Assembly (NCBI GenBank): GCA_964364285.1
Contig: CAYIKZ010000003.1
Span: 2,491 to 66,490, forward strand
DNA length: 64,000 nucleotides
Source: an uncultured Candidatus Saccharibacteria bacterium
Lineage (GTDB): Bacteria > Patescibacteriota > Doudnabacteria > UBA920 > VMFF01
Reading direction: 5' to 3'
Below are positions 5,347 to 63,659 of the stretch, one piece after another (within the stretch, counting starts at the first letter, position 1; every line of letters starts with the position of its first letter). The notes below the pieces were generated by a model, which saw nothing but the letters and a program-made list of their open reading frames with translations, did no database searches and was not told the origin of the DNA. The position numbers and the translations under genes are program-made.

Positions 5347-6480
5347 ATGTCAGATTCAATAGAACAAGAGAAAAAAGCAATATCTGGGATTTTGGATAAA
5401 ATCATAGACAGCAAGCAAACTGTCTCTTTACAGAACTTTGAACCCGGCTTAGTAGCCGGTAAGATATTAAGCTTGCTTAAAGAAAGAGATCGCCAGATTC
5501 TTGCAAAACGTTTTGGTTTACTTGGTTTCCCAGCAAAAACCCTTGAAGCAATAGGCAAGGAACATAACTTAACAAGAGAACGTGTTAGACAGATTGAAAA
5601 GGACTCAATCAAGTTTTTGCGTTCTAAACTCGATCAAGAACAGCTTGCAGAATCTGTTAAGGTTTTAGCGCATATAATTTACGATTCTGGAAGAATCATT
5701 AAAGAACTTGAGTTAATAAAGCTTTTGAGTTTTGAGTCTACAGAAGAAGAAAAGCGCTCTGTTTTGTTTTTGTTACATATAGCAGAAGAATTGTTAGAAG
5801 TTAAAGAATCTGAGCTGTATCATGCAGCTTGGGCTTCAGTTACATACAATCACGAGTTTTTTGAAAATATAATCAAAACTGCACGCGAAATACTAAAAGC
5901 TGAAGGTAAACCGATAACTGAATTAAACCTCATTGAAAAACTCCAGCAAAGCGAATTTTACAAGAATAACCAGAAAGATTTAAACGAAAAGGTTCTAAAG
6001 ACATACATTGAGATTAGCAAAGAGATTGCTAGAAATCCTTTTGGTGAATATGGTTTGAAAGATTGGCGTGAGATTAAACCAAAAGATGTTGGTGACAAAG
6101 CATACATTGTTTTAAAGCATCATGCAAAACCATCCCACTATTCTGAAATTACAGAAATGATCAACAAACATGGTTTTGACAAGAGAACCGCAAACAAAGA
6201 AAGCGTGCATAACGAATTAATCAAAGACGGACGTTTTGTTTTGGTTGGTCGTGGTATTTATGCTTTAACTGAATGGGGTTACAAGAAAGGTGTTGTTGCT
6301 GATGTAATCATAGAAATACTTGAAAGATCAAATCAACCATTAAGCCGTGATGAAATAATTTCAGAAGTTATGAAAAAGCGCATGGTTAAAAGAAATACTG
6401 TTTTAGTAGCTCTTTCAAACAAGATCCTTTTCAACAAAGTTCAAAGAAACAAGTACGAGTTAGTAGCCAGAGCAAAATAA
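5347..6480 (+). CDS. Sigma-70 region-4 (HTH) domain protein with a C-terminal winged-helix (HARE-HTH-like) domain
   Basis: RDRQILAKRFGL...LEAIGKEHNLTRERVRQIEKDSIKFLR matches the sigma-70 region 4 HTH. No regions 2 or 3 are present. The C-terminal half resembles winged-helix DNA-binding modules. Confidence 0.5.
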   Translation: MSDSIEQEKKAISGILDKIIDSKQTVSLQNFEPGLVAGKILSLLKERDRQILAKRFGLLGFPAKTLEAIGKEHNLTRERVRQIEKDSIKFLRSKLDQEQLAESVKVLAHIIYDSGRIIKELELIKLLSFESTEEEKRSVLFLLHIAEELLEVKESELYHAAWASVTYNHEFFENIIKTAREILKAEGKPITELNLIEKLQQSEFYKNNQKDLNEKVLKTYIEISKEIARNPFGEYGLKDWREIKPKDVGDKAYIVLKHHAKPSHYSEITEMINKHGFDKRTANKESVHNELIKDGRFVLVGRGIYALTEWGYKKGVVADVIIEILERSNQPLSRDEIISEVMKKRMVKRNTVLVALSNKILFNKVQRNKYELVARAK

Positions 6481-6512
6481 TTTTTTTGCTTTTCTAAACC
6501 AAGAAACAAAAA

Positions 6513-7832
6513 ATGGGAATTTTTTCAACGATATCAGAAGGTTTTGGTTCAACCATCTCCACAGGGTGGTATTTGTTTGTACATTGGTATGGGTGGGTTT
6601 TGTTCGTCATCGCCGGTTTCTACATAGTCAGAAAGCTTTATCAGGATAAGATCATAGATGATTATGTTTTTTCTAACAAAAGAATTTTTTTGCATATTAA
6701 AATTGAAAAAGAGAATTTGCAGAGCACTCTTGCGGTTGAACAGATTTTTGCCAGTATGCACGCTATGCACCAGAACTTTACCTGGGCTGAACGATGGTTA
6801 GAGGGTTTAGTGAACCTTTGGTGGACAGCAGAAATGGTAAGTTTAGGCGGTAAAATCTCTTTCATCATTTCAGTTCCTGAAAAAGTAAGAGGTCTTGCTT
6901 TAAGTTCTTTTTACGCGTATTACCCAAACGCAGAAATTGCCGAGGTTGAGGATTACATGAAAAACCTCACTCATTTGGATGATAATTCTTCTTGGGATAT
7001 ATGGGGCACTGAATACAAATTTACTAGAGACTGGGCTTACCCAATCAGAACATGGAGAGAATTTGAACACCCAGCAGCAGAAGAACCAGTCATTGATCCA
7101 ATGGCAGGAGTTTTGGAAGCATTAAGTAGAGCAGAACCACACGAAATGCTTGCAATTCAAATTGTCATGCGTCCAATTGCTGACAAAGACTGGGCTCCTC
7201 ACTCAGAAGAAGTAGTTCAAGCATTAAAAGAAGAGGGTGATCACCATGTACCATTCTTAGAAAGGATTTTACCTTTCCTAGCTTGGGGTAGTAAAAAAAC
7301 AGTTTTAGAAGCAATACAAAAAGGTGGTGGTCAAGGCGCGCATGGAGAAGAACAAAAGCAACCAAAAGTAATGCGTATGACTGAGGGTGAAAGAAACACA
7401 GTTAAAGGAATTGAAACCAAAGCAACCAAACCTGCATTTCAAACAAAGATTCGCCACCTATACATTGCACCCAAAGACAAGTTTGACAAGAACAAGAAGA
7501 GCTTACTTGTCGGCGCTTACAGGCAATTTGGAGCGGTTAATTCAAACAATTTAAAACCAGATGTTAATGGAACTTGGACAAACTATAACTACGCGATGTT
7601 TGAAGCCTTAGAAAAACCTTTTGTGAAGTTTATGATAATGGAAAGAAAACATTTATTACTTCAAGGTTTTGTTAACAGAAGTAGATGGATTGGTATTGAT
7701 CCAATGATCATGAACATTGAAGAGCTAGCAACGTTGTACCACTTCCCATTAAATACAGCCTCAACTCCTCCTGTTGAAAGAATTGATATTAAAAAAGGTC
7801 AGCCACCAGCTAACCTTCCGGTTATGAGCTAA
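6513..7832 (+). CDS. Hypothetical membrane protein (N-terminal TM helix), partner of the downstream P-loop ATPase
   Basis: Hydrophobic N-terminus (WYLFVHWYGWVLFVIAGFYIV). The stop is 4 nt before the ATPase gene start, giving tight coupling. Confidence 0.45.
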   Translation: MGIFSTISEGFGSTISTGWYLFVHWYGWVLFVIAGFYIVRKLYQDKIIDDYVFSNKRIFLHIKIEKENLQSTLAVEQIFASMHAMHQNFTWAERWLEGLVNLWWTAEMVSLGGKISFIISVPEKVRGLALSSFYAYYPNAEIAEVEDYMKNLTHLDDNSSWDIWGTEYKFTRDWAYPIRTWREFEHPAAEEPVIDPMAGVLEALSRAEPHEMLAIQIVMRPIADKDWAPHSEEVVQALKEEGDHHVPFLERILPFLAWGSKKTVLEAIQKGGGQGAHGEEQKQPKVMRMTEGERNTVKGIETKATKPAFQTKIRHLYIAPKDKFDKNKKSLLVGAYRQFGAVNSNNLKPDVNGTWTNYNYAMFEALEKPFVKFMIMERKHLLLQGFVNRSRWIGIDPMIMNIEELATLYHFPLNTASTPPVERIDIKKGQPPANLPVMS

Positions 7833-7835
7833 ACT

Positions 7836-9521
7836 ATGCAAAACGAAAACGAAGTCACATTATTCGCCAAAACCAATTTCCGAAACAAGCAGGTGCCTTT
7901 TGGTATCAAGAGAGAAGATCGTAGAAAGCACATGTATGTCATCGGTAAAACTGGTATGGGCAAAACAACGATGATGGAAAACATGATCATCCAAGATATT
8001 GTTAATGACAATGGTCTTGCTTTTGTTGATCCGCACGGCGATTCAGTAGAAAAGATTCTAAACTACATACCAGCGAGAAGAATAAACGACGTGGTGTATT
8101 TCAACCCATCAGACATGGAATTTCCAATTGCTTTTAACATTCTTGAATCAGTTGATCCAAGATACAAGCATTTAGTCGCATCAGGATTAATGGGAGTGTT
8201 TACAAAGATATGGGCAAACCTTTGGTCTGCTCGTATGGAATATATTTTAAACAATGCTATCTTAGCTTTACTTGATTCACCAGGGAATACACTCCTTGGT
8301 ATTTCAAGAATGTTAATTGACAAGAAATACAGAAAACGGATCGTTGATAACGTAAAGGATCCGGTTGTTAGATCTTTCTGGCAAGATGAGTTTGCTAACT
8401 GGAACGAGAAATATAGAATGGAAGCAATTGCTCCAATCCAAAACAAAGTTGGACAGTTCCTTTCTTCAGGAATCATTAGAAATATTGTTGGTCAACCAAA
8501 ATCAACCGTTGATTTAAGAGATTTAATGGATAACAAAAAGATTCTTTTAATGAATCTTTCAAAAGGACGTGTTGGTGAAGACAATTCAGCGCTTCTTGGT
8601 GCCATGATCATTACCAAACTTCAATTAGCAGCTCTTTCTCGTGTTGATATCCCAGAAGAAGATCGTAATGACTTCTACCTATATGTAGATGAATTTCAAA
8701 ACTTTGCAACAGAATCATTTGCAACAATTCTTTCTGAAGCAAGAAAATACCGCCTTAATTTAATTATTGGTCACCAATACATTGGTCAGCTAGTTCAGGA
8801 AAACAACAACACAAAGGTTAGAGATGCTGTATTTGGAAACGTTGGAACAATAGTAACATTCAGAGTTGGTGCAGCTGATGCAGAGTTTTTGGAAAAGGAG
8901 TTCATGCCAATATTTACAGAAAACGACCTTGTAAATATTCCAAAACACACAGTTATATTAAAGTTAATGATAAACGGTGTTGCTTCAGATCCTTTCACTG
9001 CTGAGACACTTCCTCCTGGAACATATGAAAAAACAGATAATGGCGAAAAGATCATACGTGTTTCTAGAGAAAGATATGCAAACCCAGTAACTGATGTTGA
9101 AGATAAAATAACCAAATGGATGGGTCAGGAGTTCCACGAACAAGCTGCGTTGATAGCAGGAAATCAAGTTTTGGAGGGTGAAGAACAATTGGCTCCTCAA
9201 GCACCTATACAGCAAGAGGTACCAGCTCAACCAGAGATGGTAGAAGTTCCAAAAGTTATGGTTCTGCAACAAGCTGAGGCTATGGAAAAAAAAGAAACTC
9301 CTCCAAACCCTGAAAAGAAAAAGAAAAAGAAACCAGGTAATCCAAACAACAGGAGAGACGAAAATCCAATCTGGAATACAGTTGCCAAGATGACTGATCA
9401 AAAGATCAAAGAAACTGAAACTCCTGATGTCTTGTTAAAGACTCTAGAAACAGTTAAAGTATCTGAGAGTCCAAAAAAGGTTCTTAAACCAGGAGAATCA
9501 GTAAAGCTTGATGAAATCTAA
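7836..9521 (+). CDS. P-loop NTPase of the TraG/TraD/VirD4 (TrwB-like, DUF87/HerA-related) family with a Lys/Pro-rich disordered C-terminal tail
   Basis: Walker A VIGKTGMGKTT and Walker B LYVDEFQNFA. Overall layout resembles T4SS coupling-protein ATPase domains. The C-terminus is low complexity (KKKKKKPGNPNN). Confidence 0.5.
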   Translation: MQNENEVTLFAKTNFRNKQVPFGIKREDRRKHMYVIGKTGMGKTTMMENMIIQDIVNDNGLAFVDPHGDSVEKILNYIPARRINDVVYFNPSDMEFPIAFNILESVDPRYKHLVASGLMGVFTKIWANLWSARMEYILNNAILALLDSPGNTLLGISRMLIDKKYRKRIVDNVKDPVVRSFWQDEFANWNEKYRMEAIAPIQNKVGQFLSSGIIRNIVGQPKSTVDLRDLMDNKKILLMNLSKGRVGEDNSALLGAMIITKLQLAALSRVDIPEEDRNDFYLYVDEFQNFATESFATILSEARKYRLNLIIGHQYIGQLVQENNNTKVRDAVFGNVGTIVTFRVGAADAEFLEKEFMPIFTENDLVNIPKHTVILKLMINGVASDPFTAETLPPGTYEKTDNGEKIIRVSRERYANPVTDVEDKITKWMGQEFHEQAALIAGNQVLEGEEQLAPQAPIQQEVPAQPEMVEVPKVMVLQQAEAMEKKETPPNPEKKKKKKPGNPNNRRDENPIWNTVAKMTDQKIKETETPDVLLKTLETVKVSESPKKVLKPGESVKLDEI

Positions 9522-13540: not shown

Positions 13541-13615
13541 TGGGGTGTAGCCAAGTGGTAAGGCATGGGACTCTGAATCCCACATCCGTAGGTTCGATCC
13601 CTACCACCCCAGCCA
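13541..13615 (+). tRNA. tRNA-Gln (anticodon CUG)
   Basis: 75-nt cloverleaf. The acceptor stem is TGGGGTG/CACCCCA with U1:A72 as in bacterial tRNA-Gln. The 3-bp D-stem is GCC/GGC, the anticodon stem TGGGA/TCCCA with loop CTCTGAA (CUG), the T-arm GTAGG-TTCGATC-CCTAC, and CCA is encoded. It closely resembles E. coli tRNA-Gln. Confidence 0.85.
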
Positions 13616-13662
13616 AAAATGGACGAGAATAAAAATTTTTAGATAATTATAGAATTTTTTAT

Positions 13663-14481
13663 ATGAAATTACCAATAGACAATTTGGGTTATCCAGTAAA
13701 ATTGCAGATCGGAGAATTTTCTGGATCTGGTTTTATCATTAATCAAGTGAACCAACTTTATTTAGTAACAGCAAAGCATGTTATTTATCAGCAGGATCAG
13801 ATAACAAAGGTTTTTAATTTGCTAGATAAAAAAATGATAATGATTACTTACCCCATGATTTCATCAGAAAAAGTATCATCTAAGCCAAGAATTTTTGAGT
13901 TAAACCTAGAGTTGTTATCAGCTTCTGCAGACTTAAAAGCACACGAGCAGGCTGATATTGTGGTTATTAAATTGGGAGAGCTTCAGAAAAAAAACGAAAT
14001 TTTTTATATTGACTTTCCTGCATCGATAAAAACTATTCAGGAGTCTGAAGGTACAATCATAAATTATGACATGAAGGGATCAAGACGATTTGAACAGGTA
14101 CAAATAACAAACGATATATTTATTCTTGGTTACCCTGTATCTCTTAGTACACCTGAAATGAAACAGATAGATTACAATTCGCCATTAGTTAGGAAGGGAA
14201 TCATAGCTGGAAAAAATTATTTAAATAAGTCATTGATCCTTGATTGTCCTATATATGGTGGAAATAGTGGCGGCCTTGTTTTAGAGATGAATGAAACAGG
14301 AATAGGTAGTGGTAACATTCATCTTATTGGAGTAGTTGTGCAGTTTGTACCATTTCTAGATCAGTGGAGAAATGTTAAATTTCCTCAATTGTATAACACA
14401 AATTTACAAAATTCCGGTTATTCTGTAGCTTTGCCTGTTGATTACATTTTTGATCTTATTGGAGAAATTGAGTCAAATTAA
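13663..14481 (+). CDS. Trypsin-like (S1/chymotrypsin-fold) serine protease, cytoplasmic (no signal peptide)
   Basis: Catalytic triad context: His in VTAKHVI, Asp in QADIVVIKL, Ser in YGGNSGGLV (GDSGG-like). Confidence 0.6.
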   Translation: MKLPIDNLGYPVKLQIGEFSGSGFIINQVNQLYLVTAKHVIYQQDQITKVFNLLDKKMIMITYPMISSEKVSSKPRIFELNLELLSASADLKAHEQADIVVIKLGELQKKNEIFYIDFPASIKTIQESEGTIINYDMKGSRRFEQVQITNDIFILGYPVSLSTPEMKQIDYNSPLVRKGIIAGKNYLNKSLILDCPIYGGNSGGLVLEMNETGIGSGNIHLIGVVVQFVPFLDQWRNVKFPQLYNTNLQNSGYSVALPVDYIFDLIGEIESN

Positions 14482-14510
14482 AGTGTCATTTTGGTAAATT
14501 AACGATTTTA

Positions 14511-15476
14511 GTGAAAGGAACATTAAGTAAAACAAAACATATGTATATAAAAGAATTCAAAAAGCTTAATAAAAAGAGCGTTTCAGAAGCAGGAGGCAAA
14601 GGAGCTTCCCTGGGAGAAATGACCAACGCAAAAATGCCAGTTCCACCGGGGTTTGTTGTTCTTGCTTCTGCTTTCAATCGTTTCCTAGAAGAAACAGATT
14701 TAGATACTGAAATAGAGGCATTGTTTAAAAAGGTTAAACACAATGATATCAACTCTGTTGAAAAAGCTTCTGTTGAGATCAGAGAACTCATTGCAGAAGC
14801 AACAATGCCGAAAGATCTTCAACAAGATATCTTAAAATCCTTCAAAACGTTAAAAACAACATATGTTGCGGTAAGATCCTCTGCAACCGCGGAAGACTCT
14901 AAAACCGCTTCCTGGGCAGGGGAGTTAGAGACATATTTAAACGTTACTGAAAAAAACGTAATTGCAATGGTTAAAAAATGCTGGTCGTCTTTGTTTACTC
15001 CAAGGGCGATTTTTTATCGCTATGAAAAGAAATTAAACAAGAAGGTAGTTTCTGTTGCAGTTGTTGTTCAAACAATGGTTCAATCTGAAGTTTCTGGTAT
15101 TAGTTTTACAGTTCATCCTGTAACAAAAGATTACAACCAGATGGTCATTGAAGCAGGCTTTGGTTTAGGAGAAGCAATTGTTTCTGGATCTGTTACTCCT
15201 GATACATACGTTGTACACAAAAAAGACTTTTCAATACTGGATATAAACGTATCAGAACAATCAATGATGATTATAAAATCGGGAAACAAGAACTTGAACA
15301 AAAAACTTTCTAAAAAAGATGGTGGAAAACAGAAACTTTCAGGGAAACAAATCGTTGAGCTTGCAAAGATATGTAAGAACATTGAAAAACACTACAAACA
15401 CCCACAAGACATAGAGTGGGCATATACAAATAATAAGTTCTATATAACTCAATCAAGACCTATTACAACACTTTAA
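14511..15476 (+). CDS. Stand-alone PEP/pyruvate-binding ATP-grasp domain protein (PPDK_N, N-terminal nucleotide-binding module of PEP synthase / rifampin phosphotransferase). The likely true start is the ATG at 14541
   Basis: SVSEAGGKGASLGEMTNAKMPVPPGFVV near the N-terminus and DIEWAY...YITQSRPITT at the C-terminus are hallmarks of the PPDK_N domain. There is no attached His or TIM-barrel domain. Confidence 0.8.
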   Translation: MKGTLSKTKHMYIKEFKKLNKKSVSEAGGKGASLGEMTNAKMPVPPGFVVLASAFNRFLEETDLDTEIEALFKKVKHNDINSVEKASVEIRELIAEATMPKDLQQDILKSFKTLKTTYVAVRSSATAEDSKTASWAGELETYLNVTEKNVIAMVKKCWSSLFTPRAIFYRYEKKLNKKVVSVAVVVQTMVQSEVSGISFTVHPVTKDYNQMVIEAGFGLGEAIVSGSVTPDTYVVHKKDFSILDINVSEQSMMIIKSGNKNLNKKLSKKDGGKQKLSGKQIVELAKICKNIEKHYKHPQDIEWAYTNNKFYITQSRPITTL

Positions 15477-15480
15477 CAAC

Positions 15481-16788
15481 ATGCCAAAAGAGAAAAGCGC
15501 CAAACAGATTGAATTGGAGGTTTTAAAATACAAAGACTGGGAATGGTGGGCAGAGCGTCCTTTTGGTGCTTTTGTTATGTCACTCTTCAGAGAGGGGCAA
15601 AAAAGAGAATACATACGCAAACTTGGTGTTGACGCAGAGTGGCCAGTCTTACTCTTTCAAAAAGGGACTTTTTACAAAAGTGAAACAGTTTGGAATATCT
15701 TTGCAAAACAGTTAGAAAAATATTTAGCAAAAGGTGGAACGGTTTTTAGCATAACAAAATCATGTGAAAGATTCTTGATTGATAGCAAAAAGTTTGTAAG
15801 AGAGCTTAACAAATCAAAACTACCACCACAAAAGAAACTCCAAAAACTGCACGAACCATTAACATTAATCATGAGTTATGTTTGGTTAACTCATGGTTTT
15901 GAACATATTTACAAAAAGCGCCTTTACAAAGAAGTTCCGAAATATGTAAAAGGGGACATAGACAAATATATTGGTGATATTAGTTTTCCTATTAAAAAGA
16001 ATGCGCACCATCATTTAGAAAAAACTTTAAGAAGCAAACAGCCTTTGGAACAAATTCGAGAACGATGGGGCTGGATTAAAGCTCGAGATGGTTTTTCTGA
16101 TATATTCACAATCAAAGAATTAGCTTTAGAGCGTAAGAAACTAAAGGGAACAAAACACTCGACCTTTAAAAAAATAAGGGTTCCTAAAGCTTTACAATCA
16201 CTAGCAAAGGTATCCCAAGAGCTAGTGTATTTAAGAACGTTAAGAACTGACGTGCTTTATGAATTAATGTATTTAGCTCGTCCGACACTTAATGAGGTTG
16301 CAAAGCTATACAAAATTCCTTTCAAAAGCTTAAGAGACTACGCTGTTTGGGATTTGGTTCAAGGAAAACTTAAAAAATACCTATATACTCCTGATTTGTC
16401 AGCAATCAGTGTTGGTAAGGACTTTGTATTATTAGATCATCCGATATTGAAAGACAGATACGGGAAAATGGATTCCATAAAAGGGTTAATAGCAAACAAA
16501 GGATTTGCTGTCGGTAGAGCAAAGATAGTTAAGATTGCTCACGAGATAGGAAAGGTTAAAAAAGGGGATATACTATTTGCACCAACAACCTTCCCTTCCT
16601 TTATCATGGGAATGAAAAGAGCGGCAGCTTTTGTTACTGACGAAGGGGGTATTACATCACACGCAGCAATAGTTGCTAGAGAGTTAAACAAGCCATGTAT
16701 TATAGGGACGAAAATAGGAACAAAAGTTTTTAAAGACGGTGACTTAGTAGAAGTTGATGCTAACAAAGGTATAATTAAAAAGCTATGA
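15481..16788 (+). CDS. Paralog 1: variable N-terminal domain (~330 aa) + C-terminal PEP-utilizing-enzyme mobile (phospho-His swivel) domain
   Basis: C-terminal GDILFAPTTFPSFIMGMKRAAAFVTDEGGITSHAAIVARELNKPCIIGT...EVDANKGIIKKL is the swivel domain with the catalytic His in GGITSHAAI. Confidence 0.8.
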   Translation: MPKEKSAKQIELEVLKYKDWEWWAERPFGAFVMSLFREGQKREYIRKLGVDAEWPVLLFQKGTFYKSETVWNIFAKQLEKYLAKGGTVFSITKSCERFLIDSKKFVRELNKSKLPPQKKLQKLHEPLTLIMSYVWLTHGFEHIYKKRLYKEVPKYVKGDIDKYIGDISFPIKKNAHHHLEKTLRSKQPLEQIRERWGWIKARDGFSDIFTIKELALERKKLKGTKHSTFKKIRVPKALQSLAKVSQELVYLRTLRTDVLYELMYLARPTLNEVAKLYKIPFKSLRDYAVWDLVQGKLKKYLYTPDLSAISVGKDFVLLDHPILKDRYGKMDSIKGLIANKGFAVGRAKIVKIAHEIGKVKKGDILFAPTTFPSFIMGMKRAAAFVTDEGGITSHAAIVARELNKPCIIGTKIGTKVFKDGDLVEVDANKGIIKKL

Positions 16789-18266
16789 AGTTAAAATATA
16801 TAACTGACAAAGACCCATGGATGTTAGCTGAAGACATTCCAGATATTCATTTTCAATTTACTCAAATCTGGTCATCATCTTTTGTTAACGATTTATCGAG
16901 AACAGCAAAAAAACAATACAAAAAAATTCTTGTCGTATATCATGGTTTAAATCTAGTGTTTTATTATGGCGAAAAGGACTCTGATGATTTTGCTCAACAT
17001 CTTTTAAAGTTATTAAAAAACAATTCAAGTTTTGGTGACAAGATTAATTACAACATCAGAAAACACTCAGATGGGTTAAAGAAATTTAGTTCGCAGATCA
17101 ATCCTGAATTTCTGATGGGATTATCGAATAAAGAATTGGTCAATTTTTACACAAAACTAGATAGTATTCATACCGAGCTATATACATGGGGTTGGTTACC
17201 AAATGCAGTAGATATGTTCCACGGTAATCTAACAAATTATCTCAAATCGTTATTACGTTTGAAACTAGACGAAGATAAAGTTAATACAGCTTTAGTTACT
17301 TTAAGCACCCACCCAGAAAAAAGTATTCTTCAAAAAGAACATGAATCATTCCTTAATTTGGTAAGTTTAAAACAAAGAAAATCTAAAGAATTTGAAAATG
17401 CTTTGCAAAAGCATTTAAGCAGGTTTTTCTATCTCAAACATTTATGGATAGGAAAAGAAGGTGTATACGATAAAGCATATTATTTGACTGAGATAAAAAA
17501 GTTTTTGGCTTCAGGAGAAAATGCTAAAGTATTGCTTGACAAAGAAAATAAGATTTTTAAAAAGACTTTACAGGAACAGAAAACTCTTATTAAGAAGTTA
17601 AAACTAAATAAAAAGCAAAAACAGCTTTTTAATTCTTATGCGGAGTTCTCTGTTACAAAACTATATAGACGCGATGCGCAAATCTTTTGGTCTTACAAAA
17701 TGGATTATGTTTTTTTAGAATTATCGAAAAGATTTAAAATTAGTTTTTTGCAAGCAAGATGCATGCTACCGAATGAGGTGTATGATGGTTTAATTAAGAA
17801 TAAGCTTTCGGGATCGTTAAGAAATCAATTAAAACAACGCACAAAGTATTTTGTTTATTACGCTGAAAAGGGCTCAGACTTAATATTTTATGGCAAAAGA
17901 GCAAAAGTATTAGAAAATAAAATATCTAAGCTATCTCGACTTGATATTAACGAATTAAGCGGGCAAACTGCTTGTTTGGGTAAAGTTCAAGGAAAGGTAA
18001 AGATCGTTAATTCCATTTCTGACATGAAGAAAATGGAGAAAGGCGATATTCTTATTAGCATTGCTACTAATCCTGATGTAGTACCTGCAATGAGAACAGC
18101 TGGGGCGATAGTAACTGAACAAGGCGGTATTACATCACACGCAGCTATAGTTTCTAGAGAGTTGAATATTCCTTGCATAATTGGAACAAAGATAGCAACC
18201 CAAGTTTTTAAAGATGGTGATATGGTTGAAGTAGACGCGAACAAAGGAATTGTGAGGAAATTATGA
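16785..18266 (+). CDS. Paralog 2: divergent N-terminal domain (~390 aa) + C-terminal phospho-His swivel domain
   Basis: C-terminal GDILISIATNPDVVPAMRTAGAIVTEQGGITSHAAIVSRELNIPCIIGT...EVDANKGIVRKL. ATGA overlap with the upstream gene. Confidence 0.8.
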   Translation: MKLKYITDKDPWMLAEDIPDIHFQFTQIWSSSFVNDLSRTAKKQYKKILVVYHGLNLVFYYGEKDSDDFAQHLLKLLKNNSSFGDKINYNIRKHSDGLKKFSSQINPEFLMGLSNKELVNFYTKLDSIHTELYTWGWLPNAVDMFHGNLTNYLKSLLRLKLDEDKVNTALVTLSTHPEKSILQKEHESFLNLVSLKQRKSKEFENALQKHLSRFFYLKHLWIGKEGVYDKAYYLTEIKKFLASGENAKVLLDKENKIFKKTLQEQKTLIKKLKLNKKQKQLFNSYAEFSVTKLYRRDAQIFWSYKMDYVFLELSKRFKISFLQARCMLPNEVYDGLIKNKLSGSLRNQLKQRTKYFVYYAEKGSDLIFYGKRAKVLENKISKLSRLDINELSGQTACLGKVQGKVKIVNSISDMKKMEKGDILISIATNPDVVPAMRTAGAIVTEQGGITSHAAIVSRELNIPCIIGTKIATQVFKDGDMVEVDANKGIVRKL

Positions 18267-19231
18267 AAAAAATTGATCCAAAAGAATGGCAATTCTATTT
18301 AACCAGACCTTTTGATCTATTTGGTGCTTCACTTTGGCATGGTTGGTATGAATCAAAGTATATACAACACGCTTTGGGTTTTAAAATGGACGAAATAATC
18401 TGTGTTGAAATTAGTCCTCATTTGGTTAGTCAATACAGGGCTAAGGAACAGATGCGCTTACTAACCAAGCATATCCAAAAGCTCATATTTTTAACTCCTA
18501 AAAAATTTGAAAGGTTGCTAAAACATGGTCTTGCTTTAAGCAAGAAAGCAGATAGATATTTAGAAAAGCCACATAAATTTAAAAATTTGGATGACGCTTT
18601 AGAATTTTTCAATGAGTTAATTTTCTATACCACTGTCTTTTCTAACTTTCCAACATTTCTAGATCAAAACAAAAAATTACCAAACAAAGCCATTGGTATG
18701 ATTAGTCAACTTCGCAGTGCTTCTTACTATTCTCCTTTTTTGAAGAAAATAATTATGCCGCTTGCCAAGGCTCATCCCTTAGTCATACTTCAAAAGAAAA
18801 ATCACTCAAAGCGATTTATTTACACAAAGAGGCGCGGTAAAGAAGAAATTCAATGGGTTAAGAATACTAAAAACTTCGTCAAACAATTTGAAACCCATGT
18901 AATTAAATCAAAAGAGATAAAAGGGTTTGCCGCTTATCCAGGAAAAGTTAGAGGCAGGGTTCACTTGGTTCGCGATTTCACAAAACCTGGAAAAATGAAG
19001 GATGGTAGTATTCTAGTTTCAATAAACACTAACCCAAACTTGATGCCTTTAATTCGTAAGGCTTCAGCAATTGTTTCGGATGAAGGTGGTATAACAAGTC
19101 ATGCGGCTATAGTATCAAGAGAATTTAAAATTCCATGCGTCATAGGTACAAAGGTTGCCACCAAGGTACTTAAAAATAATGATTTAGTCGAAGTGGACGC
19201 AAACAAAGGAATTGTGCGAAAATTAAAATAA
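18263..19231 (+). CDS. Paralog 3: divergent N-terminal domain (~220 aa) + C-terminal phospho-His swivel domain
   Basis: C-terminal GSILVSINTNPNLMPLIRKASAIVSDEGGITSHAAIVSREFKIPCVIGT...EVDANKGIVRKL. ATGA overlap with the upstream gene. Confidence 0.8.
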   Translation: MKKIDPKEWQFYLTRPFDLFGASLWHGWYESKYIQHALGFKMDEIICVEISPHLVSQYRAKEQMRLLTKHIQKLIFLTPKKFERLLKHGLALSKKADRYLEKPHKFKNLDDALEFFNELIFYTTVFSNFPTFLDQNKKLPNKAIGMISQLRSASYYSPFLKKIIMPLAKAHPLVILQKKNHSKRFIYTKRRGKEEIQWVKNTKNFVKQFETHVIKSKEIKGFAAYPGKVRGRVHLVRDFTKPGKMKDGSILVSINTNPNLMPLIRKASAIVSDEGGITSHAAIVSREFKIPCVIGTKVATKVLKNNDLVEVDANKGIVRKLK

Positions 19232-19244
19232 TTAAGCAAAACAC

Positions 19245-20126
19245 ATGGAAACAAGAGAAACAGGGGCGGAAAGAAAAGAAACCCAGTCAGTTCCAAGAAT
19301 AAGGTTGGAGTTTTTTAGACATGATGAAAAGGCTAAAGCTTTAGCTGGTCAATCAGATAACGAAGTTCGTTTAAGTGAAAAAGGAAGAATAAACGCGGTA
19401 GAAATTGGCAAAACCAAAGATCCACACCCAGAAGTCGCTATTGCCCTCGGTTCTCCAAGAGAGCGTTCTACAGAGACTGCAATGCGCGAAATGTTGTCAA
19501 AAGAACCAGGCATTACACAAGAAGACACTCTTGAAGACATTCAAGAATTTGTTGCTGGTTCTTTAAAAGTTGGCAGAAAGAACATGGTAGACAAAAGATT
19601 AGATTTTGATTGGCACGGTGAATTTGGCGAAATTGCAGAAGATCGTTATTTAAACAAAAAGGATTATTTACAATTTGCTGTTGAAGAAAGCGATGAGGTA
19701 GTAAAAAGACTTAAAGACCGAACTTCAACAAGCTATACCAGACAAGCAGCAGGGATTGCTGAGATCATAAAGAAATACGTTGGTGTTCTCCCTAACTTTC
19801 AACAAGTTGTAGAACAGGATCCTGATAAATACACTTTGTATGACAACGAAATGCAAAGATTTTTGGGGACACACGCAGATGTAAGCGAATGCTTCCTTCT
19901 TAAGGTCATTGAAATAACAGAAGGGCGAGAAGCCTTAATGCAATTCCTTCAATCAGGTATTAACAAAAACGGTTTTAACTTTAGTGAAGGGTTTAGCGTT
20001 GAAATACTATCAGATGGAATCCTTGTTAGATACAAAGAACGAGAATGGAGCATAAAGCCGGAGCTACTAGATCAAATTATTAAGCAAAGAGACGAATTGG
20101 ATAAAAGTATTGATGAAAGCGATTAA
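19245..20126 (+). CDS. Histidine-phosphatase superfamily (phosphoglycerate-mutase-like) protein with a variant RHD(E) catalytic motif
   Basis: RIRLEFFRHDEKAK...LSEKGRINAVEIGK parallels the PGM block LVRHGESEWN...LSEKGxxEAxxxGK. SPRERSTETA matches the second Arg motif and THADV the distal His motif. Confidence 0.45.
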   Translation: METRETGAERKETQSVPRIRLEFFRHDEKAKALAGQSDNEVRLSEKGRINAVEIGKTKDPHPEVAIALGSPRERSTETAMREMLSKEPGITQEDTLEDIQEFVAGSLKVGRKNMVDKRLDFDWHGEFGEIAEDRYLNKKDYLQFAVEESDEVVKRLKDRTSTSYTRQAAGIAEIIKKYVGVLPNFQQVVEQDPDKYTLYDNEMQRFLGTHADVSECFLLKVIEITEGREALMQFLQSGINKNGFNFSEGFSVEILSDGILVRYKEREWSIKPELLDQIIKQRDELDKSIDESD

Positions 20127-21177
20127 TATACAAAAGTTCAAGCACGATGATTGGACAAAAATCTGGGATGGCGGCTGGAGCATTTTAAGTTGCTCTGATT
20201 TTGGTTATCAGTACACCAAAGGAATTAGATTTGGCAAAAGACCATTTGCTCCTAAATCTATAATCTTTGTTAATTCAGGGCGAAGCTCTGGCTGGATGAG
20301 GCAATCAGACAGAGACATTCTTGGCTCCTTTTTATCAAAGCAAGCGCTTAGATATCCTAAAAACATAATTCAAGTTTGCAGCGAGCTTAAAAAACAATCC
20401 AAAGATATCCTCTCCTTTATCAGAAAACACGGAGATACCGTTGCTAGCTTAAAACTATACGAAGAGTTTTTACATCGAATCTTAATATATTACAAACCAC
20501 ACATTAATGTTAAATATGTTGTTGACTATCTAGATCCCAAGTTCTTAAAGAAATCTTTACCTGTATTAGAAGAAGCTAGATTAACCGCTGAGCCTGTTTT
20601 TAAAAGAACAGAAGAGTTTCTCACTTCATTCGTAAAGATTTTGTCTAAAGAAACAAAGTACAACTACAAGTTAATCTTGTCTCTAACAAGTGATGAAGTA
20701 AGAGAATACTTTCTTAAGAACAAACTGCCAGCAAAAAAAGAATTAGAGCAAAGATACAAAGAATGTGTTTTTCTTCATGAAAACGGGGAATATATACTAT
20801 TAAGAAACAAGGCGGTTAATTCTGTTAAAAAAATAGTACAACCTAAGATTAATAAATCGGAGGTAAGGGGGTTCGCTGCTTTCAAAGGAAAAGTAAGAGG
20901 AGTTGCTCGTATAGTATTGGATCCTAACAAATCAAAAGCATTTAAAAACGGTGATATTTTAATTACTGGATCAACTAGACCTGAGTTTTTGCCAATCATG
21001 GCAAAAGCAAAAGCTTTTGTAACAGATTCCGGCGGTATATTATCCCACGCAGCTATTACAGCTAGAGAAATGAAAAAACCTTGCGTTATAGGTACACAGA
21101 TAGGAACAAAAGTTTTTAAAGATGGCGATTTGATAGAAGTTGATGCTAATAACGGGATTGTTAGAAAGGTGAAATAA
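20110..21177 (+). CDS. Paralog 4: divergent N-terminal domain (~250 aa) + C-terminal phospho-His swivel domain
   Basis: C-terminal GDILITGSTRPEFLPIMAKAKAFVTDSGGILSHAAITAREMKKPCVIGT...EVDANNGIVRKV. Confidence 0.8.
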   Translation: MMKAINIQKFKHDDWTKIWDGGWSILSCSDFGYQYTKGIRFGKRPFAPKSIIFVNSGRSSGWMRQSDRDILGSFLSKQALRYPKNIIQVCSELKKQSKDILSFIRKHGDTVASLKLYEEFLHRILIYYKPHINVKYVVDYLDPKFLKKSLPVLEEARLTAEPVFKRTEEFLTSFVKILSKETKYNYKLILSLTSDEVREYFLKNKLPAKKELEQRYKECVFLHENGEYILLRNKAVNSVKKIVQPKINKSEVRGFAAFKGKVRGVARIVLDPNKSKAFKNGDILITGSTRPEFLPIMAKAKAFVTDSGGILSHAAITAREMKKPCVIGTQIGTKVFKDGDLIEVDANNGIVRKVK

Positions 21178-21629
21178 TGACAATAACTCTTTGTGGTAGT
21201 ATTGCTTTCATTGATCAAATGTATGAGCTAAAAGAAAAGCTTGAGTCTTTAGGGTTTGATGTTTTAATTCCTCCTGACAAAGTTCCAAACAAAGAAGGGG
21301 AGATAGTTGATGCAAAAGATTACTATGCTTCTAAAAAGAGGGCAATGTCTGAGAATAACCATGCTTGGGTTACAGAGGGTAATCTAGATAACAGAATCAG
21401 GGATCACTTTGATAAGGTGACTAAAGGGGACGCAATCCTTGTTGCTAACTATGATAAAAACGGAATTAAATGGTATGTAGGTCCAAATACATTAGTTGAA
21501 ATGGGAGTTGCTTTTTACTTAAATAAAAAGATCTATCTATTAAACCCAGTTCCAGATGTTCCGTACAAAGAAGAGATTCTAGGAATGAAACCAGAAATAA
21601 TGGAAAATGATTTGAGTAAGATAAAATAA
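21177..21629 (+). CDS. Nucleoside 2-deoxyribosyltransferase-like protein (PF05014-like Rossmann fold)
   Basis: N-terminal ITLCGSIAF resembles the NDT YFAGGWF block. C-terminal GPNTLVEMGVAFYLNKKIYLL resembles the NDT catalytic block G-x-x-x-E-x-G-x-A. Confidence 0.5.
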   Translation: MTITLCGSIAFIDQMYELKEKLESLGFDVLIPPDKVPNKEGEIVDAKDYYASKKRAMSENNHAWVTEGNLDNRIRDHFDKVTKGDAILVANYDKNGIKWYVGPNTLVEMGVAFYLNKKIYLLNPVPDVPYKEEILGMKPEIMENDLSKIK

Positions 21630-21652
21630 AACCGCAGACACCTGCGGTTTTA
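21628..21652. terminator. Bidirectional rho-independent terminator (aaaccgcag-acacc-ctgcggttt + T-run), shared by the + cluster and the convergent minus-strand gene
   Basis: 9-bp stem, A-run upstream and T-run downstream. It lies between convergent stops at 21629 and 21670. Confidence 0.65.
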
Positions 21653-21669
21653 TTATCTTTAACCTTTAG

Positions 21670-22272
21670 TTATTGATTTGTTGTGCTTGTGCTAGGAGTT
21701 TTTGCAGAAGTATTTGTGTTGCATGCGGTTCTTGTTTTCTTTGCTGTATTTTCTGCAGTCTTGTTTGCAGCCTTAAATGTTGTTTCTGCTGCTTTAACAG
21801 CTGCTTTGAAATCTGCTTGAGCTTTTTTCATAGCAGTTTTCTTAGCTGCTTTTTCTACATCAGTTGTTTCAGGCATTTGTCTTACTGCTTGTAGTGCAGT
21901 TTCTCTTGCTGAGAAAGCGGTCTTAACAGTATTCATTCTTGCTTCTCTAGCATCTTTCTTTGCTTCTTCTTTAGTTTCTACTGTTCCTTTTATACAAGCT
22001 GTTTTTGTTTCCTCAATCTTTTTCTTTGCTTCGATTTTCTCTTTTCTTTCCTGTTCTTTCTTTTCCATCTCTGTTTTCTTTGCTTCTAACTTTAACTCTT
22101 GAGCTTTTTTCAAAGCTTCAAATTTTCTCTCTTGTTCGTTTTTTTTAATTTCCATCTGTTCAGCTTTTGAATTTGAAGATGAATCGTCATTCACGTCACT
22201 TGCATAGACTGGTGCTACTGTTAAAGCAAACATCACAGCTATGGAAGATCCTAATATTGCTAACTTACGCAT
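21670..22272 (-). CDS. Secreted Lys/Glu-rich coiled-coil protein (signal peptide, low complexity)
   Basis: N-terminal signal peptide MRKLAILGSSIAVMFALTVAPVYA, then KEAEKK-type repeats. No family recognised. Confidence 0.45.
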   Translation of the reverse strand: MRKLAILGSSIAVMFALTVAPVYASDVNDDSSSNSKAEQMEIKKNEQERKFEALKKAQELKLEAKKTEMEKKEQERKEKIEAKKKIEETKTACIKGTVETKEEAKKDAREARMNTVKTAFSARETALQAVRQMPETTDVEKAAKKTAMKKAQADFKAAVKAAETTFKAANKTAENTAKKTRTACNTNTSAKTPSTSTTNQ

Positions 22273-60749: not shown

Positions 60750-63659
60750 TTATTCTAAATCCGCAAAGTCACAGCGGTGTTCCCTAACCTTTTCGTGCAG
60801 CTGTTTAAATGAATCCGCCTTTATGGCACTATGTATTTCGTCTATTGTTCCTAAGAGATATTCTTTCATGTGTTCTAGTTCTTCCTTAGAAGCAATAATG
60901 TCTTCAGAAAGCTCGTTGTCCTTTAAAAACCAATAGTTTAACTTTGAAACCCCATGTTTAAAGTACTCTTCAGCAGCCCATTGATATATGTAGAGCTGGT
61001 ATCTGTTTTCTTTGTCGTCTTTAAACTTTTCTCCGGTTTTGTAATCAATGATCTGCAGTTTACCATCTGGCAACAAATCAGCGCGGTCTATTTTCCCTGT
61101 AAACGTGTATTCACCAAGCTTTAAGACAAACCTTTCTTCAATGTATTTAGGAACAAACTTTAGTTTTTCAAAAGAATCGTAAAAACTACGAAGCATTCTA
61201 CGTCCTCGTTCTCTGTATTCTTCTTTGTCTTTCTTAGTTGGATACCACTCATCAATCCAGTATGATTCATACATTTTCTGTAAGGCTTCAAATGCAGGAA
61301 GTTTGCTCTTTTCTTTTTCAGAACCAAACAAATCAAGCTGCTTTTCTTCTAAGTTTGCTTTGTACTGCTTTAAAAATCTTTCAAAGGTTGTATGAATGGT
61401 GTTACCAAAGGAAAGATGTTTGCTGCCTTTAGTTGGAAGATGCAACAAATATTTGTACTTGTAACCCAAAGGGCACTTCTTAAATTCATTTATTGCTGTG
61501 TAGTTAAAAGAAGTTGGTAATTCAAAGCTTAATTTCTTTGGAAGTTTCTTTTCTTCAAACTTTGTCCGTTTTAATATCTCAACACTTTTTTCAGGCTTTG
61601 CAACAAGACCAATATCAATTAAAAACTGGGATGGTTTTCTTGCTCTTTGTCCACCATAATCAGAAGCATAACTAAAATACAAATTTTGTTTTGCGCGAGT
61701 CATCGCAACATAGAACAAACGTCGTTCTTCTTGTAAATGTATATCCCCTTCCGGCAATATTTCCTTAACCAACTCTTTTGGAATTTCAATTGCTTCTTTT
61801 CGATCTCTGCTTGGAAAACGCTGATCAACCATGTTAACCACAAAAACATTTTTAAACTCCAAGCCCTTTGCTGAGTGTATGGTCATAATCTTGATGCTTT
61901 CAGGGCCTTGGTTTGGATCAAAATCAAGCTTTCCTTCATCACCAGCCTCTTGTTCAAACTCAATGAAAGCAAGGAAATTCCTCACTGTTTTGTCAGTGTT
62001 TTCAACTTCAAATGCTTCAATCTTCTTGTAGAATTGGTTTATGAAATCAGCTTCTCCTGGTTCTCCCTCCCCTTTTTCAATACGTTCATCAAGCTTTAAT
62101 CCATAGATGCCGTTTACAAAAACCTCAGCTATACTTTTTGTTTTAGTTTCGTCTGCTTGTTTTTTAAGGAAAGCAATTAACTGGTTAATCTTTGTTATGC
62201 TGTCATTTTTAAGAGTTGGCAAGAGTGCCACCTGTTCTAAGCTCTCATACAAAGAAAGAGTTTTCTTTTGAGCGTGTTGCAATATCTCAACCATATCACG
62301 ATGATCAAATCTAAACTGCTCCATGTTCATAACCCTAAACAAAGCGTTTGTGTCATGAAAATTAACAAGTAACCTCAAATATGCGATTAGATCAACAATG
62401 ATTGGTTTCTTGTAGAGCCCTTTGTTAGCAACAAAAGTATACGCGAAATTAAGAGATGCAAACTTTGCTATGAATGGCTCTGCCGTGTCATTTGAACGAA
62501 CTAAGATCGCAAAGTCATTCCATGTGGTTTCCTTTTGTTTTTTCAACTCTAAGATCTTTTTAACAACCAGATCAACTTCATCAGAAAGAGTTTGTCCTGA
62601 CAAAACAGCAATTTCTCCTTTTTCTTTTTTCGCAGAAACAAGTTTTTTATTAATCTTTAGTTTTGGCTCTAGTCTTTCAGGGTTGTTTAGCTGAATGAAG
62701 TTGTATGCAGTGTCTAATATTTCCTGAGTTGATCTATAATTCTCTGTTAAGGTAATTTCTTGTGCTTTAGGAAAATCTTTTTTAAAGCGCATAATATTAG
62801 AAACAGAGGCGCCTCTAAACTTGTAAATACTTTGATCATCATCACCAACAACCGTTAAATTGTTCTTTGGTTCAGCCAACAGCTTTATTAACTCATACTG
62901 TGCGTAGTTAGTGTCCTGAAACTCATCAACCAAAATATATTTAAATTTGCTTCTGTAAAAGTTTAAGATCTTTGGACGAGTTCTAAAAAGCTTCAGAGCA
63001 TAATTAATTAAATCACCGAAGTCCAAAGAATCATTAGTAAGCAACAATCTTTGATATATATGGTAAGCTCTTGCAACCTCGTTTAAACGAACGATTTCTT
63101 CTTCAGTGTCGTATTCTGGATTGCTTTTGTCTAGTTTAGTGTTTTTAGCAAACTCTAAATACTCTTCAGGAGAGATCTCTTCATCCTTAAGCTTGCTGAA
63201 GTGCTTTAAGAGCGCCTTTATGAACTTTGTTGGGTTTCCCAGTGTTCTATAGTATTCAAGCTCAAATTGGTCCAAATTTTGACGCACAAGCAACCACTGA
63301 CCAACCTCTTCAAGCATTTTAAAGTCATTTGAAATACCAATGTCTAAGGCGTGCTGTTGTAAAACTCTTTGGCAAAATCCGTGAAAGGTGTGAATCCAAA
63401 GATCGTGATATCCATACGGAAGCAATATATCAACTCTTTGTTCCATTTCAGTTGCTGCTTTTTCAGTAAATGTTAAAGCAAGAATTTCTTCTGGTTTAAC
63501 ACCTGATTCAATGAGCTGAGCAATTCTTCTAGTTATGACTGTTGTTTTTCCTGTCCCAGCTCCGGCAATGATGAGCAGTGGACCAACACCATAGCTAACT
63601 GCGCTCTGCTGTGCAGTATTTAAATCTGAAAGGAGTTTTTCTTTTTTTGCTTTAACCAT
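60750..63659 (-). CDS. UvrD/PcrA-family SF1 helicase fused to a C-terminal PD-(D/E)XK (RecB/AddA/Cas4-like) nuclease domain
   Basis: N-terminal LNTAQQSAVS...IIAGAGTGKTTV (Walker A), a DEFQD Walker B and UvrD motifs. The C-terminus has GKIDRAD...QIIDYKTG (PD-(D/E)XK block). Confidence 0.65.
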   Translation of the reverse strand: MVKAKKEKLLSDLNTAQQSAVSYGVGPLLIIAGAGTGKTTVITRRIAQLIESGVKPEEILALTFTEKAATEMEQRVDILLPYGYHDLWIHTFHGFCQRVLQQHALDIGISNDFKMLEEVGQWLLVRQNLDQFELEYYRTLGNPTKFIKALLKHFSKLKDEEISPEEYLEFAKNTKLDKSNPEYDTEEEIVRLNEVARAYHIYQRLLLTNDSLDFGDLINYALKLFRTRPKILNFYRSKFKYILVDEFQDTNYAQYELIKLLAEPKNNLTVVGDDDQSIYKFRGASVSNIMRFKKDFPKAQEITLTENYRSTQEILDTAYNFIQLNNPERLEPKLKINKKLVSAKKEKGEIAVLSGQTLSDEVDLVVKKILELKKQKETTWNDFAILVRSNDTAEPFIAKFASLNFAYTFVANKGLYKKPIIVDLIAYLRLLVNFHDTNALFRVMNMEQFRFDHRDMVEILQHAQKKTLSLYESLEQVALLPTLKNDSITKINQLIAFLKKQADETKTKSIAEVFVNGIYGLKLDERIEKGEGEPGEADFINQFYKKIEAFEVENTDKTVRNFLAFIEFEQEAGDEGKLDFDPNQGPESIKIMTIHSAKGLEFKNVFVVNMVDQRFPSRDRKEAIEIPKELVKEILPEGDIHLQEERRLFYVAMTRAKQNLYFSYASDYGGQRARKPSQFLIDIGLVAKPEKSVEILKRTKFEEKKLPKKLSFELPTSFNYTAINEFKKCPLGYKYKYLLHLPTKGSKHLSFGNTIHTTFERFLKQYKANLEEKQLDLFGSEKEKSKLPAFEALQKMYESYWIDEWYPTKKDKEEYRERGRRMLRSFYDSFEKLKFVPKYIEERFVLKLGEYTFTGKIDRADLLPDGKLQIIDYKTGEKFKDDKENRYQLYIYQWAAEEYFKHGVSKLNYWFLKDNELSEDIIASKEELEHMKEYLLGTIDEIHSAIKADSFKQLHEKVREHRCDFADLE

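Follow-up and report, generated by a model that had tools for sequence, protein, structure and literature searches.

We analysed a stretch of 64,000 nucleotides (nt), referred to as the window, from contig CAYIKZ010000003.1 of an ultra-small bacterium of the Candidate Phyla Radiation (CPR), focusing on a block of genes downstream of a tRNA-Gln gene that probably encodes an ATP-dependent dikinase in which one ATP-binding subunit would serve several acceptor-binding subunits. All coordinates are positions within the window. On the 3' side of tRNA-Gln, the single tRNA that ARAGORN detected in the window, eight co-directional open reading frames (ORFs) are located on the plus strand. The designations 'I' and 'H' used for their products are taken from the two-component small-molecule dikinases HpeHI, CreHI, and PpsAB (phenylphosphate synthase), a subfamily homologous to rifampin phosphotransferase (RPH), where the I subunit is the ATP-grasp protein and the H subunit combines an RPH-like binding domain with a swivel domain (Dexter et al. 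2025, PMC12167813).

13541-13615, plus strand: tRNA-Gln (CTG), identified by ARAGORN
13663-14481, plus strand: protease, trypsin-like (S1; Pfam Trypsin_2), 272 amino acids (aa)
14511-15476, plus strand: ppdkN, stand-alone ATP-grasp protein with PPDK_N (PF01326) only, I-type component, 321 aa
15481-16788, plus strand: sw1, H-type, 435 aa, a 330-aa helical N-terminal domain (N-domain) and a C-terminal phospho-His swivel domain (His394)
16785-18266, plus strand: sw2, H-type, 493 aa, a 388-aa N-domain and a swivel domain (PF00391, E 1.1e-24)
18263-19231, plus strand: sw3, short-form H-type, 322 aa, a 217-aa N-domain and a swivel domain (PF00391, E 4.9e-24)
19245-20126, plus strand: hisP, histidine-phosphatase superfamily, 293 aa, inside the array
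20110-21177, plus strand: sw4, short-form H-type, 355 aa, a 250-aa N-domain and a swivel domain with the motif GGILSH (PF00391, E 1.5e-22)
21177-21629, plus strand: ndt, 150 aa, weakly similar to nucleoside 2-deoxyribosyltransferases (PF05014, below threshold), last gene of the operon
21625-21654, between convergent genes: hairpin resembling a bidirectional intrinsic terminator, 13-pair stem with a CCGCAG/CTGCGG core, flanked by A and T runs
63662-64000, minus strand: 3' end of a fifth swivel gene (GGITSHASIV), cut off by the end of the window (PF00391, E 7.4e-25)

An earlier sequence-only reading of this DNA had described a plus-strand block behind tRNA-Gln that ends in a strong terminator, and both the tRNA with its downstream ORFs and the hairpin between the convergent genes bear this description out. 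The 4-nt ATGA overlaps that it had reported for the block are confined to the junctions sw1/sw2 and sw2/sw3; ppdkN and sw1 are separated by 4 nt and sw3 and hisP by 13 nt, hisP overlaps sw4 by 14-17 nt, and sw4 and ndt share 1 nt (TAATG). The dispersed copy near the end of the window, counted as the sixth, is actually the fifth swivel gene. As homology to a sister strain (locus L085, see below) begins at position 14540, the true start of ppdkN is likely to be the ATG at 14541, giving a protein of 311 aa, and the true start of sw4 is likely the ATG at 20113, for which gene callers give 354 aa.

The ATP-grasp protein consists, as predicted, of a single module: PPDK_N covers residues 26-320 of 321 (E 1.7e-101), and no other Pfam domain was detected. 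In NCBIfam, it corresponds best to the N-terminal third of phosphoenolpyruvate (PEP) synthase (NF005057, E 1.7e-104) and to that of RPH (E 4.4e-84), and it is 97% identical to the 311-aa protein of L085. All four paralogues carry PF00391 (PEP-utilizers) at the C-terminus (E 1.5e-22 to 7.9e-26), ending within 5-6 residues of this swivel domain. The catalytic His motif reads GGITSHAAIV in sw1, sw2, and sw3, and GGILSHAAIT in sw4; thus, the catalytic His, whose loss had been raised as an objection, is kept in all swivel domains. With pairwise protein identities of 53-66% the domains are less alike than the 'near-identical' of the sequence-only reading, and the fifth swivel gene is 57-66% identical to the others (tblastn). 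The PEP/pyruvate-binding TIM barrel PEP-utilizers_C (PF02896) gave no Pfam match in any of the eight block proteins. NCBIfam models of RPH score 35-65 bits on the swivel proteins and 206-283 bits on ppdkN at cut-offs of 999-1700; for NF041857, the values are 47-65 and 283 bits, and the cut-off of 999 is not passed. The closest sequence relative of the swivel domains in the PDB is of the PEP synthase/pyruvate phosphate dikinase (PPDK) type (8a8e, E 2e-25).

The database names 'phosphoenolpyruvate synthase' and 'pyruvate, water dikinase' and the NCBIfam PEP-synthase matches for the ATP-grasp and swivel parts would speak for just one or two original genes, for PEP synthase or RPH, that were split by frameshifts or assembly errors. 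Such genes would, however, carry one catalytic His motif each instead of the four found here, PEP-utilizers_C is missing from the block, and no similarity links the N-domains to PEP synthase. Moreover, four contigs assembled independently from different Hainich groundwater metagenome samples agree in gene order and encode identical sw2 proteins, and for each paralogue there are many full-length homologues, conserved in length, with 30-65% identity. The sw1 family, for instance, comprises proteins of about 430 aa that are 44-65% identical over their full length in Patescibacteria and DPANN archaea, and the sw3 family represents a conserved short form of 320-370 aa in CPR and DPANN. We therefore rejected frameshifted PEP synthase or RPH genes, an objection already considered in the sequence-only reading, as an explanation whose probability is practically nil.

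We then compared the N-domains, which are less than 20% identical to one another while the swivel domain is conserved. Direct pairwise comparison of the four (BLASTP, phmmer) yielded nothing significant. hhalign of the family profiles, in contrast, related sw1 to sw2 (probability 98.1%, E 7e-14), sw2 to sw4 (97.3%, E 1.9e-11), and sw3 to sw1 (94.4%, E 9e-8), and single-linkage clustering placed 198 of 238 N-domains in one cluster. The four N-domains, initially taken for different domains, are thus divergent homologues of one RPH-like fold, the short forms being trimmed versions of the long ones. PADLOC models assigned no family to the N-domains. An invariant set of Arg, Lys, and His residues is found in the alignment of the sw1 family; invariant positions of sw1 include R26, H138, K172, R202, R252, R255, and D257. 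One of 100 N-domain sequences matched an ArsR/SmtB-type helix-turn-helix (E 1.4e-7), which suggests that swivel proteins may occasionally be fused to a DNA-binding domain.

The assignment to the RPH-like fold is based on an AlphaFold2 model of sw1 calculated from 49 homologues (predicted local distance difference test (pLDDT) 92, predicted template modelling (TM) score 0.85). In a Foldseek search of the PDB the top six matches of the model were all RPH, with the whole query aligned and E values of 3.7e-14 to 3e-10; the query-normalised TM scores were 0.29-0.47, with four of the six at 0.42-0.47, as compared to about 0.21 for matches restricted to the swivel domain (PPDK, enzyme I, pyruvate kinase). 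PDB searches by sequence reached the swivel domain only, save that the sw1 family profile aligned with RPH residues 712-882, i.e. about 60 residues further upstream, which is unique among the PDB matches. According to the model, the swivel proteins would thus be built like an H component, with an N-terminal part that resembles the rifampin-binding domain of RPH and, behind it, the swivel domain that carries the catalytic His.

The neighbourhood search proposed in the sequence-only reading showed that similar arrays recur in CPR and DPANN. One genome per species was scanned with the sw1 alignment, resulting in 79 loci, mostly labelled CPR or DPANN; ORFs were called and searched with the domains of the window, and the counts given here cover 81 loci and up to 10 kb on either side. 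These loci contain 290 swivel modules and 35 PPDK_N domains. The number of tandem swivel genes per locus ranges from 2 to 10, with 10 in L069 and nine plus one PPDK_N in each of L064 and L030. Among the 41 arrays that lie inside their locus, 14 combine at least two swivel modules with exactly one PPDK_N, and none has two. The order of ppdkN directly followed by a gene with an sw1-type N-domain recurs in the window, L005, L021, L022, and L085. Several loci bear labels other than CPR or DPANN, namely 'Gammaproteobacteria' (L015, L016, L021, L026, L029, L040, L045, L051, L060), 'Methanosarcinales' (L027, L053, L084), and 'Planctomycetota' (L009, L073); these are automated labels of metagenome-assembled genomes, the contigs resemble the rest, and they are possibly mislabelled.

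A number of DPANN and CPR genomes encode the entire array as one ORF of the architecture PPDK_N-(N-domain-swivel)n, with n = 2 to 8:

L036, 2-10978, plus strand: PPDK_N and eight N-domain-swivel modules, 3,658 aa, truncated N-terminally at the locus boundary
L019, 4154-12289, plus strand: PPDK_N and five modules, 2,711 aa
L053: three modules; L051, L054, and L068: two modules each; L066: likewise a giant ORF

L036 and L019, the two that were checked, are free of Ns; identity between the modules of one protein is 28-65%, and the His motif is present in every module. Further fusions emerged when 1.84 billion cluster representatives were searched exhaustively (phmmer) for relatives of the sw2 N-domain. 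The 640 relatives obtained, themselves representatives of clusters formed at 50% identity, include 193 with E <1e-10. P0309 is a single chain of PPDK_N, N-domain, and swivel domain; P0426, P0378, and P0367 have the reverse order of N-domain, swivel domain, and PPDK_N; and P0335 is a multi-swivel protein. These fusions are the strongest evidence available that the ATP-grasp protein works with several swivel paralogues, and together with the 14 arrays they fit the proposal of the sequence-only reading that one ATP-loading module serves several swivel carriers.

A second recurrent constituent of the arrays are phosphohydrolases. The position of hisP between sw3 and sw4 was confirmed, its identity as a histidine phosphatase being supported by family and fold; its own match to His_Phos_1 is below the Pfam threshold (E 0.0034). 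We found 67 homologues of 290-315 aa, those with a named source all being from Patescibacteria save one labelled Planctomycetes, and R25, H26, H210, and E215 are invariant in the family. Eight of the nine homologues from our loci match His_Phos_1, and the AlphaFold2 model of hisP (pLDDT 94.4) predicts an alpha/beta fold like that of phosphoglycerate mutase with the His of the RH(G) motif and partner Arg and His residues, as in the superfamily. In seven of the nine loci hisP is located between swivel genes. Genes for HD, HAD, and low-molecular-weight protein tyrosine phosphatase (LMW-PTP) proteins as well as two further RHG-type proteins also recur inside or beside arrays, and at least one phosphohydrolase gene (hisP, HD, HAD, LMW-PTP) lies in or next to 21 of the 58 multi-gene arrays. 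Phosphohydrolases also occur as fusions, with P0361 ending in swivel domain, PPDK_N, and HD, and P0146 being a short protein of N-domain, swivel domain, and NUDIX.

Other genes were observed in the vicinity of the arrays. A family of about 178 aa with 'VTHGSK' at the N-terminus and no Pfam match lies on the opposite strand between swivel genes in six of its eight occurrences (minus strand; L029 8699, L071 8713, L020 11737, L035 11975, L052 13508, and others) and might be a degenerate RHG phosphatase. Genes for lumazine synthase, flavokinase, and a cytidylyltransferase-like protein, which may be an FMN adenylyltransferase, recur beside arrays in 4-5 loci each and in several lineages, with RibH at L026 279, L083 8517, L062 6165, L052 3603, and L010 12314, and other flavin-related genes at L005 14160-15290, L013 6857, L024 4597, L018 5504, and L044 323.

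A histidine phosphatase within an array of phospho-His domains could also belong to a regulatory phosphorelay similar to VadK or the phosphotransferase system (PTS), in which the ATP-grasp subunit would phosphorylate swivel proteins that bind to protein targets and regulate them, with hisP as a phospho-His phosphatase of the SixA type. There is a precedent in VadK from M. tuberculosis, a PPDK-derived protein that phosphorylates itself on His and controls enzymes by interacting with them (PMC13400623), and the swivel sequences are of the PEP synthase/enzyme I type. The modelled N-domain, however, matches the acceptor-binding domain of a small-molecule dikinase, up to 8-10 regulators seem excessive for genomes of about 1 Mb, and the NUDIX and HD fusions point to small phosphorylated molecules, so that we regard a regulatory role as improbable.

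Comparison with the sister strain revealed how such an array changes. L085 is a 325-kb contig from the same aquifer whose flanks, including tRNA-Gln and the NDT-like gene, are 92-94% identical to those of the window. The homology (about 92% identity) breaks after position 13618, and instead of the protease segment at 13619-14539 L085 contains, at 5460-9059, a 231-aa ORF, two NUDIX genes, and a 481-aa swivel gene. L085 also lacks 16783-21011 of the window, that is sw2, sw3, hisP, and most of sw4, and its 'sw1' is a chimera that resembles sw1 of the window up to the motif at the His codon, TCACACGCAGC, and sw4 beyond it (window 16560-16800 and 20950-21190; L085 11080-11320). Chimera and missing stretch together indicate a deletion by recombination between swivel-coding repeats, implying that the family expands and contracts and that the swivel halves are interchangeable. 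The expanding family postulated in the sequence-only reading thus holds in the form of a family that is expanding or contracting.

The protease is correctly named, with Trypsin_2 above the gathering score (E 6.4e-8) and the motifs TAKHV and GGNSGG. In the loci retrieved its homologues are restricted to contigs of the same strain, and it is replaced in L085; we therefore rejected it as a component of the system and consider it to be probably strain-specific cargo outside the dikinase system. A similar picture emerged for ndt, which matches PF05014 weakly (E 6.3e-4, 20.3 bits at a cut-off of 28.8) and has no sequence match among solved structures. It is kept right after the last swivel gene in the sister strains L085-L087, and no homologue was found in other arrays among the loci retrieved. 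Both genes had been included in the system by the sequence-only reading; the protease turned out to belong to a strain-variable segment rather than being a recurrent partner, and ndt is conserved in the close relative only. The tRNA-Gln marks the left edge of the strain-variable segment and has no functional role in the dikinase system.

A variable segment directly behind a tRNA gene may indicate an anti-phage defence or mobile island, with the protease and the NDT-like protein as effectors and the dikinase modules as sensors or modifiers. NDT-like domains are present in some defence effectors, and the protease has weak PADLOC matches (PDC-S45, E 9.4e-11; LmuA; RT-Protease). These are matches to single-gene or partial models, PADLOC is silent on the other seven proteins, and neither protease nor NDT-like gene recurs with arrays elsewhere. 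We saw no integrase or flanking repeat at the array or the strain-variable segment, the flanks contain housekeeping genes in conserved synteny (H+-PPase, fmt, def), and a scan of viral contigs gave matches to the swivel domain only, without homologues of the N-domain. A tRNA-borne mobile island, and with it the mobility suggested for the family, was rejected on these grounds, and we regard a defence function as very improbable.

The remaining surroundings are as follows. On the minus strand at 21670-22272, convergent on the operon terminator, lies a gene whose product of 200 aa is rich in Lys, Glu, and Ala, starts with what resembles a signal peptide, and has no Pfam match; this protein is kept in the sister strain at 196 aa. 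The fifth swivel gene overlaps the start of a gene at 60750-63659 (minus strand) for a 969-aa helicase of the UvrD/AddA type with a PD-(D/E)XK nuclease domain; it adjoins this gene on the upstream side, in a housekeeping setting with the PheRS and GyrB genes downstream.

Taken together, we consider it likely that an ATP-dependent two-component dikinase of the RPH/PpsAB/HpeHI type, with multiple acceptors, is encoded by the block 14511-21177. In such a system the single PPDK_N protein would bind ATP and make it available to the swivel domains at the C-termini of all four H paralogues; the conserved His of these domains would be (pyro)phosphorylated, the gamma-phosphate leaving as Pi. The swivel domain would then swing back to its own helical N-domain, resembling the rifampin-binding domain, and pass the beta-phosphate to the bound acceptor X, giving the net reaction ATP + X + H2O -> AMP + Pi + X-P. 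The embedded hisP might dephosphorylate the product or an intermediate, or reset the phospho-His, and arrays gain and lose modules via recombination between the conserved swivel-coding segments. As each paralogue has its own diverged N-domain, each presumably has its own acceptor. We infer the chemistry of phosphotransfer, the sharing of one ATP-grasp subunit, and the diversity of acceptors from the organisation described above.

As to the nature of the acceptors, our guess, which we hold weakly, is that they are scavenged small molecules (nucleosides, nucleotides, cofactors) that would be trapped or activated by phosphorylation. The invariant Arg, Lys, and His residues together with nearby NUDIX, HD, NDT-like, and flavin genes make us lean weakly towards polar, nucleotide- or cofactor-like acceptors, which would accord with salvage in organisms of reduced biosynthesis. 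In its widest form, which we put forward only tentatively and do not expect to hold in full, the system would be a platform common to CPR and DPANN in which one ATP-grasp module charges 2-10 interchangeable swivel domains, each joined to a diverged acceptor-binding domain, for the general phosphorylation of scavenged metabolites, replacing dedicated kinases that may be missing from these reduced genomes. This platform would include coupling to phosphohydrolases and concatemers of 2,700-3,700 aa, and its repertoire would evolve by recombination at the codon of the catalytic His.

The same dikinase mechanism could alternatively serve the inactivation of xenobiotics or antibiotics, each module phosphorylating another toxic molecule, in the way RPH phosphorylates rifamycins, and so protecting an episymbiont against metabolites of its host or community. 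RPH is the only solved structure that matches the whole H component, the N-domains are extremely diverged (<20% identity) next to a conserved swivel domain, array content differs between strains with 92-94% identical flanks, and 'rph-like' resistance matches have been reported in CPR genomes by a study that counts these genes and says nothing more on them (PMC8651080). Yet the sw1 type is constant in length, 44-65% identical across CPR and DPANN, and contains the invariant Arg, Lys, and His, which looks more like a housekeeping enzyme with a polar or anionic substrate than like a hydrophobic drug pocket. Embedded phosphatases would reverse the inactivation, the arrays lie amid housekeeping genes, and the NCBIfam scores for RPH are far under the cut-offs, all of which makes a detoxifying battery an unlikely sub-case.

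Several observations weigh against the multi-acceptor dikinase. In sequence searches the N-domains match neither RPH nor PpsA/PRK08296 nor any Pfam or NCBIfam family, so that their link to RPH is a structural prediction with modest global TM scores, and phosphotransfer from the ATP-grasp protein to the four paralogues is deduced solely from the order of the genes and the fusions. In sequence, the swivel and ATP-grasp parts resemble genuine PEP synthase more closely than they do RPH, the swivel domain having the Thr of PEP synthase at position -2 from the His, where RPH and HpeH have Met. Ten of the 41 arrays inside their locus contain several modules and no PPDK_N within 10 kb on either side; their partner may therefore be encoded elsewhere or differ. 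A phosphatase embedded in a kinase operon looks futile for simple trapping, and the higher density of phosphohydrolases inside than outside arrays (1.61 versus 0.23 per 10 kb) is biased, as these families were first found near arrays. Finally, there are few hints at nucleotide or flavin metabolism (NUDIX, HD, NDT-like, RibH, flavokinase), and common descent of the loci may account for them.

If the multi-acceptor dikinase is correct, a shared ATP-loading subunit with a battery of acceptor modules constitutes a new kinase organisation, and so does one ATP-grasp domain with up to eight catalytic swivel His domains in a single polypeptide. The family is large. It is concentrated in CPR and DPANN, organisms with a little-understood metabolism that have to live on scavenged building blocks, and knowing the acceptors could bring to light salvage or detoxification chemistry so far missed in ultra-small symbionts. 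The present names 'PEP synthase' and 'PEP-utilizing enzyme' may mislead metabolic reconstructions, for example of gluconeogenesis, and such genes may equally mislead antibiotic-resistance surveys that count 'rph-like' genes. The swapping of modules at the His codon, in turn, suggests a natural route to engineered dikinase specificity.

Among known systems, PEP synthase and PPDK come closest in sequence to the ATP-grasp and swivel parts and have the GGxT[SC]HAAI motif in common with them. They contain the PF02896 TIM barrel, whereas the system described here lacks PF02896, places a helical acceptor domain N-terminal to the swivel domain, and distributes its parts over separate genes. Glucan, water dikinase (GWD) resembles P0426, P0378, and P0367 in its order of acceptor domain, His domain, and nucleotide-binding domain; it acts on starch and has carbohydrate-binding modules, which were not detected here.

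RPH (PDB 5HV1, 5FBT) follows the same logic of ATP-grasp, acceptor-binding, and His swivel domains, and P0309 has exactly its order in one chain. RPH is, however, a single chain of about 865 aa, whereas here the domains reside on separate proteins that do not reach the NCBIfam cut-offs for RPH, and outside the swivel domain the sequence similarity is limited to the approximately 60 residues just upstream. PigC and RedH are further single-chain relatives of RPH, as is YvkC. In the RPH reaction, ATP and rifampin yield AMP, Pi, and phospho-rifampin by way of the swivel His (PMC4844700); for rifamycins as substrates of the proteins studied here we found no evidence.

The closest parallel is provided by PpsAB, CreHI, and HpeHI. 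Since these are already two-component systems, the split architecture itself, which the sequence-only reading took for undescribed, is not new; the one-to-many arrays, on the other hand, appear to be undescribed, as we found no description of arrays or polyproteins in the full-text literature searched, where coverage of subscription journals is thin and absence is not proof. In both cases a separate PPDK_N protein is encoded beside a His-domain protein by adjacent, co-directional genes (here ppdkN ends 4 nt before sw1), the H protein consists of an RPH-like acceptor domain and a C-terminal swivel domain, and by analogy the reaction would be ATP -> AMP + Pi + phospho-acceptor via phospho-His. 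In the known systems the His is essential (HpeH H581Q is inactive), the H:I complex is transient, and H alone can pass phosphate between acceptors (PMC12167813). The H proteins described here are shorter (322-493 aa versus about 600-640 aa in PpsA and HpeH), and their N-domains have no sequence similarity to PpsA or HpeH. PRK08296 models cover the swivel domain only, i.e. the last 100-120 residues, with 52-103 bits at cut-offs of 578-730, and 100 N-domains searched against models of this type gave zero matches. The swivel domain of the HpeH type has Met at -2, whereas the PEP-synthase-like domain found here has Thr. PpsAB, CreHI, and HpeHI occur in degraders of aromatic compounds, the arrays in CPR and DPANN, and unlike the former the arrays contain embedded phosphohydrolase genes. 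What looks new is therefore the ratio: two-component dikinases, recognised recently, have so far been seen only as 1:1 pairs for the breakdown of phenolic compounds, whereas in CPR and DPANN, throughout the lineage, a single ATP module is combined with many diversified acceptor and carrier modules, at 1:4 in the window, with up to about 10 H genes in related loci, and with up to eight modules fused in cis.

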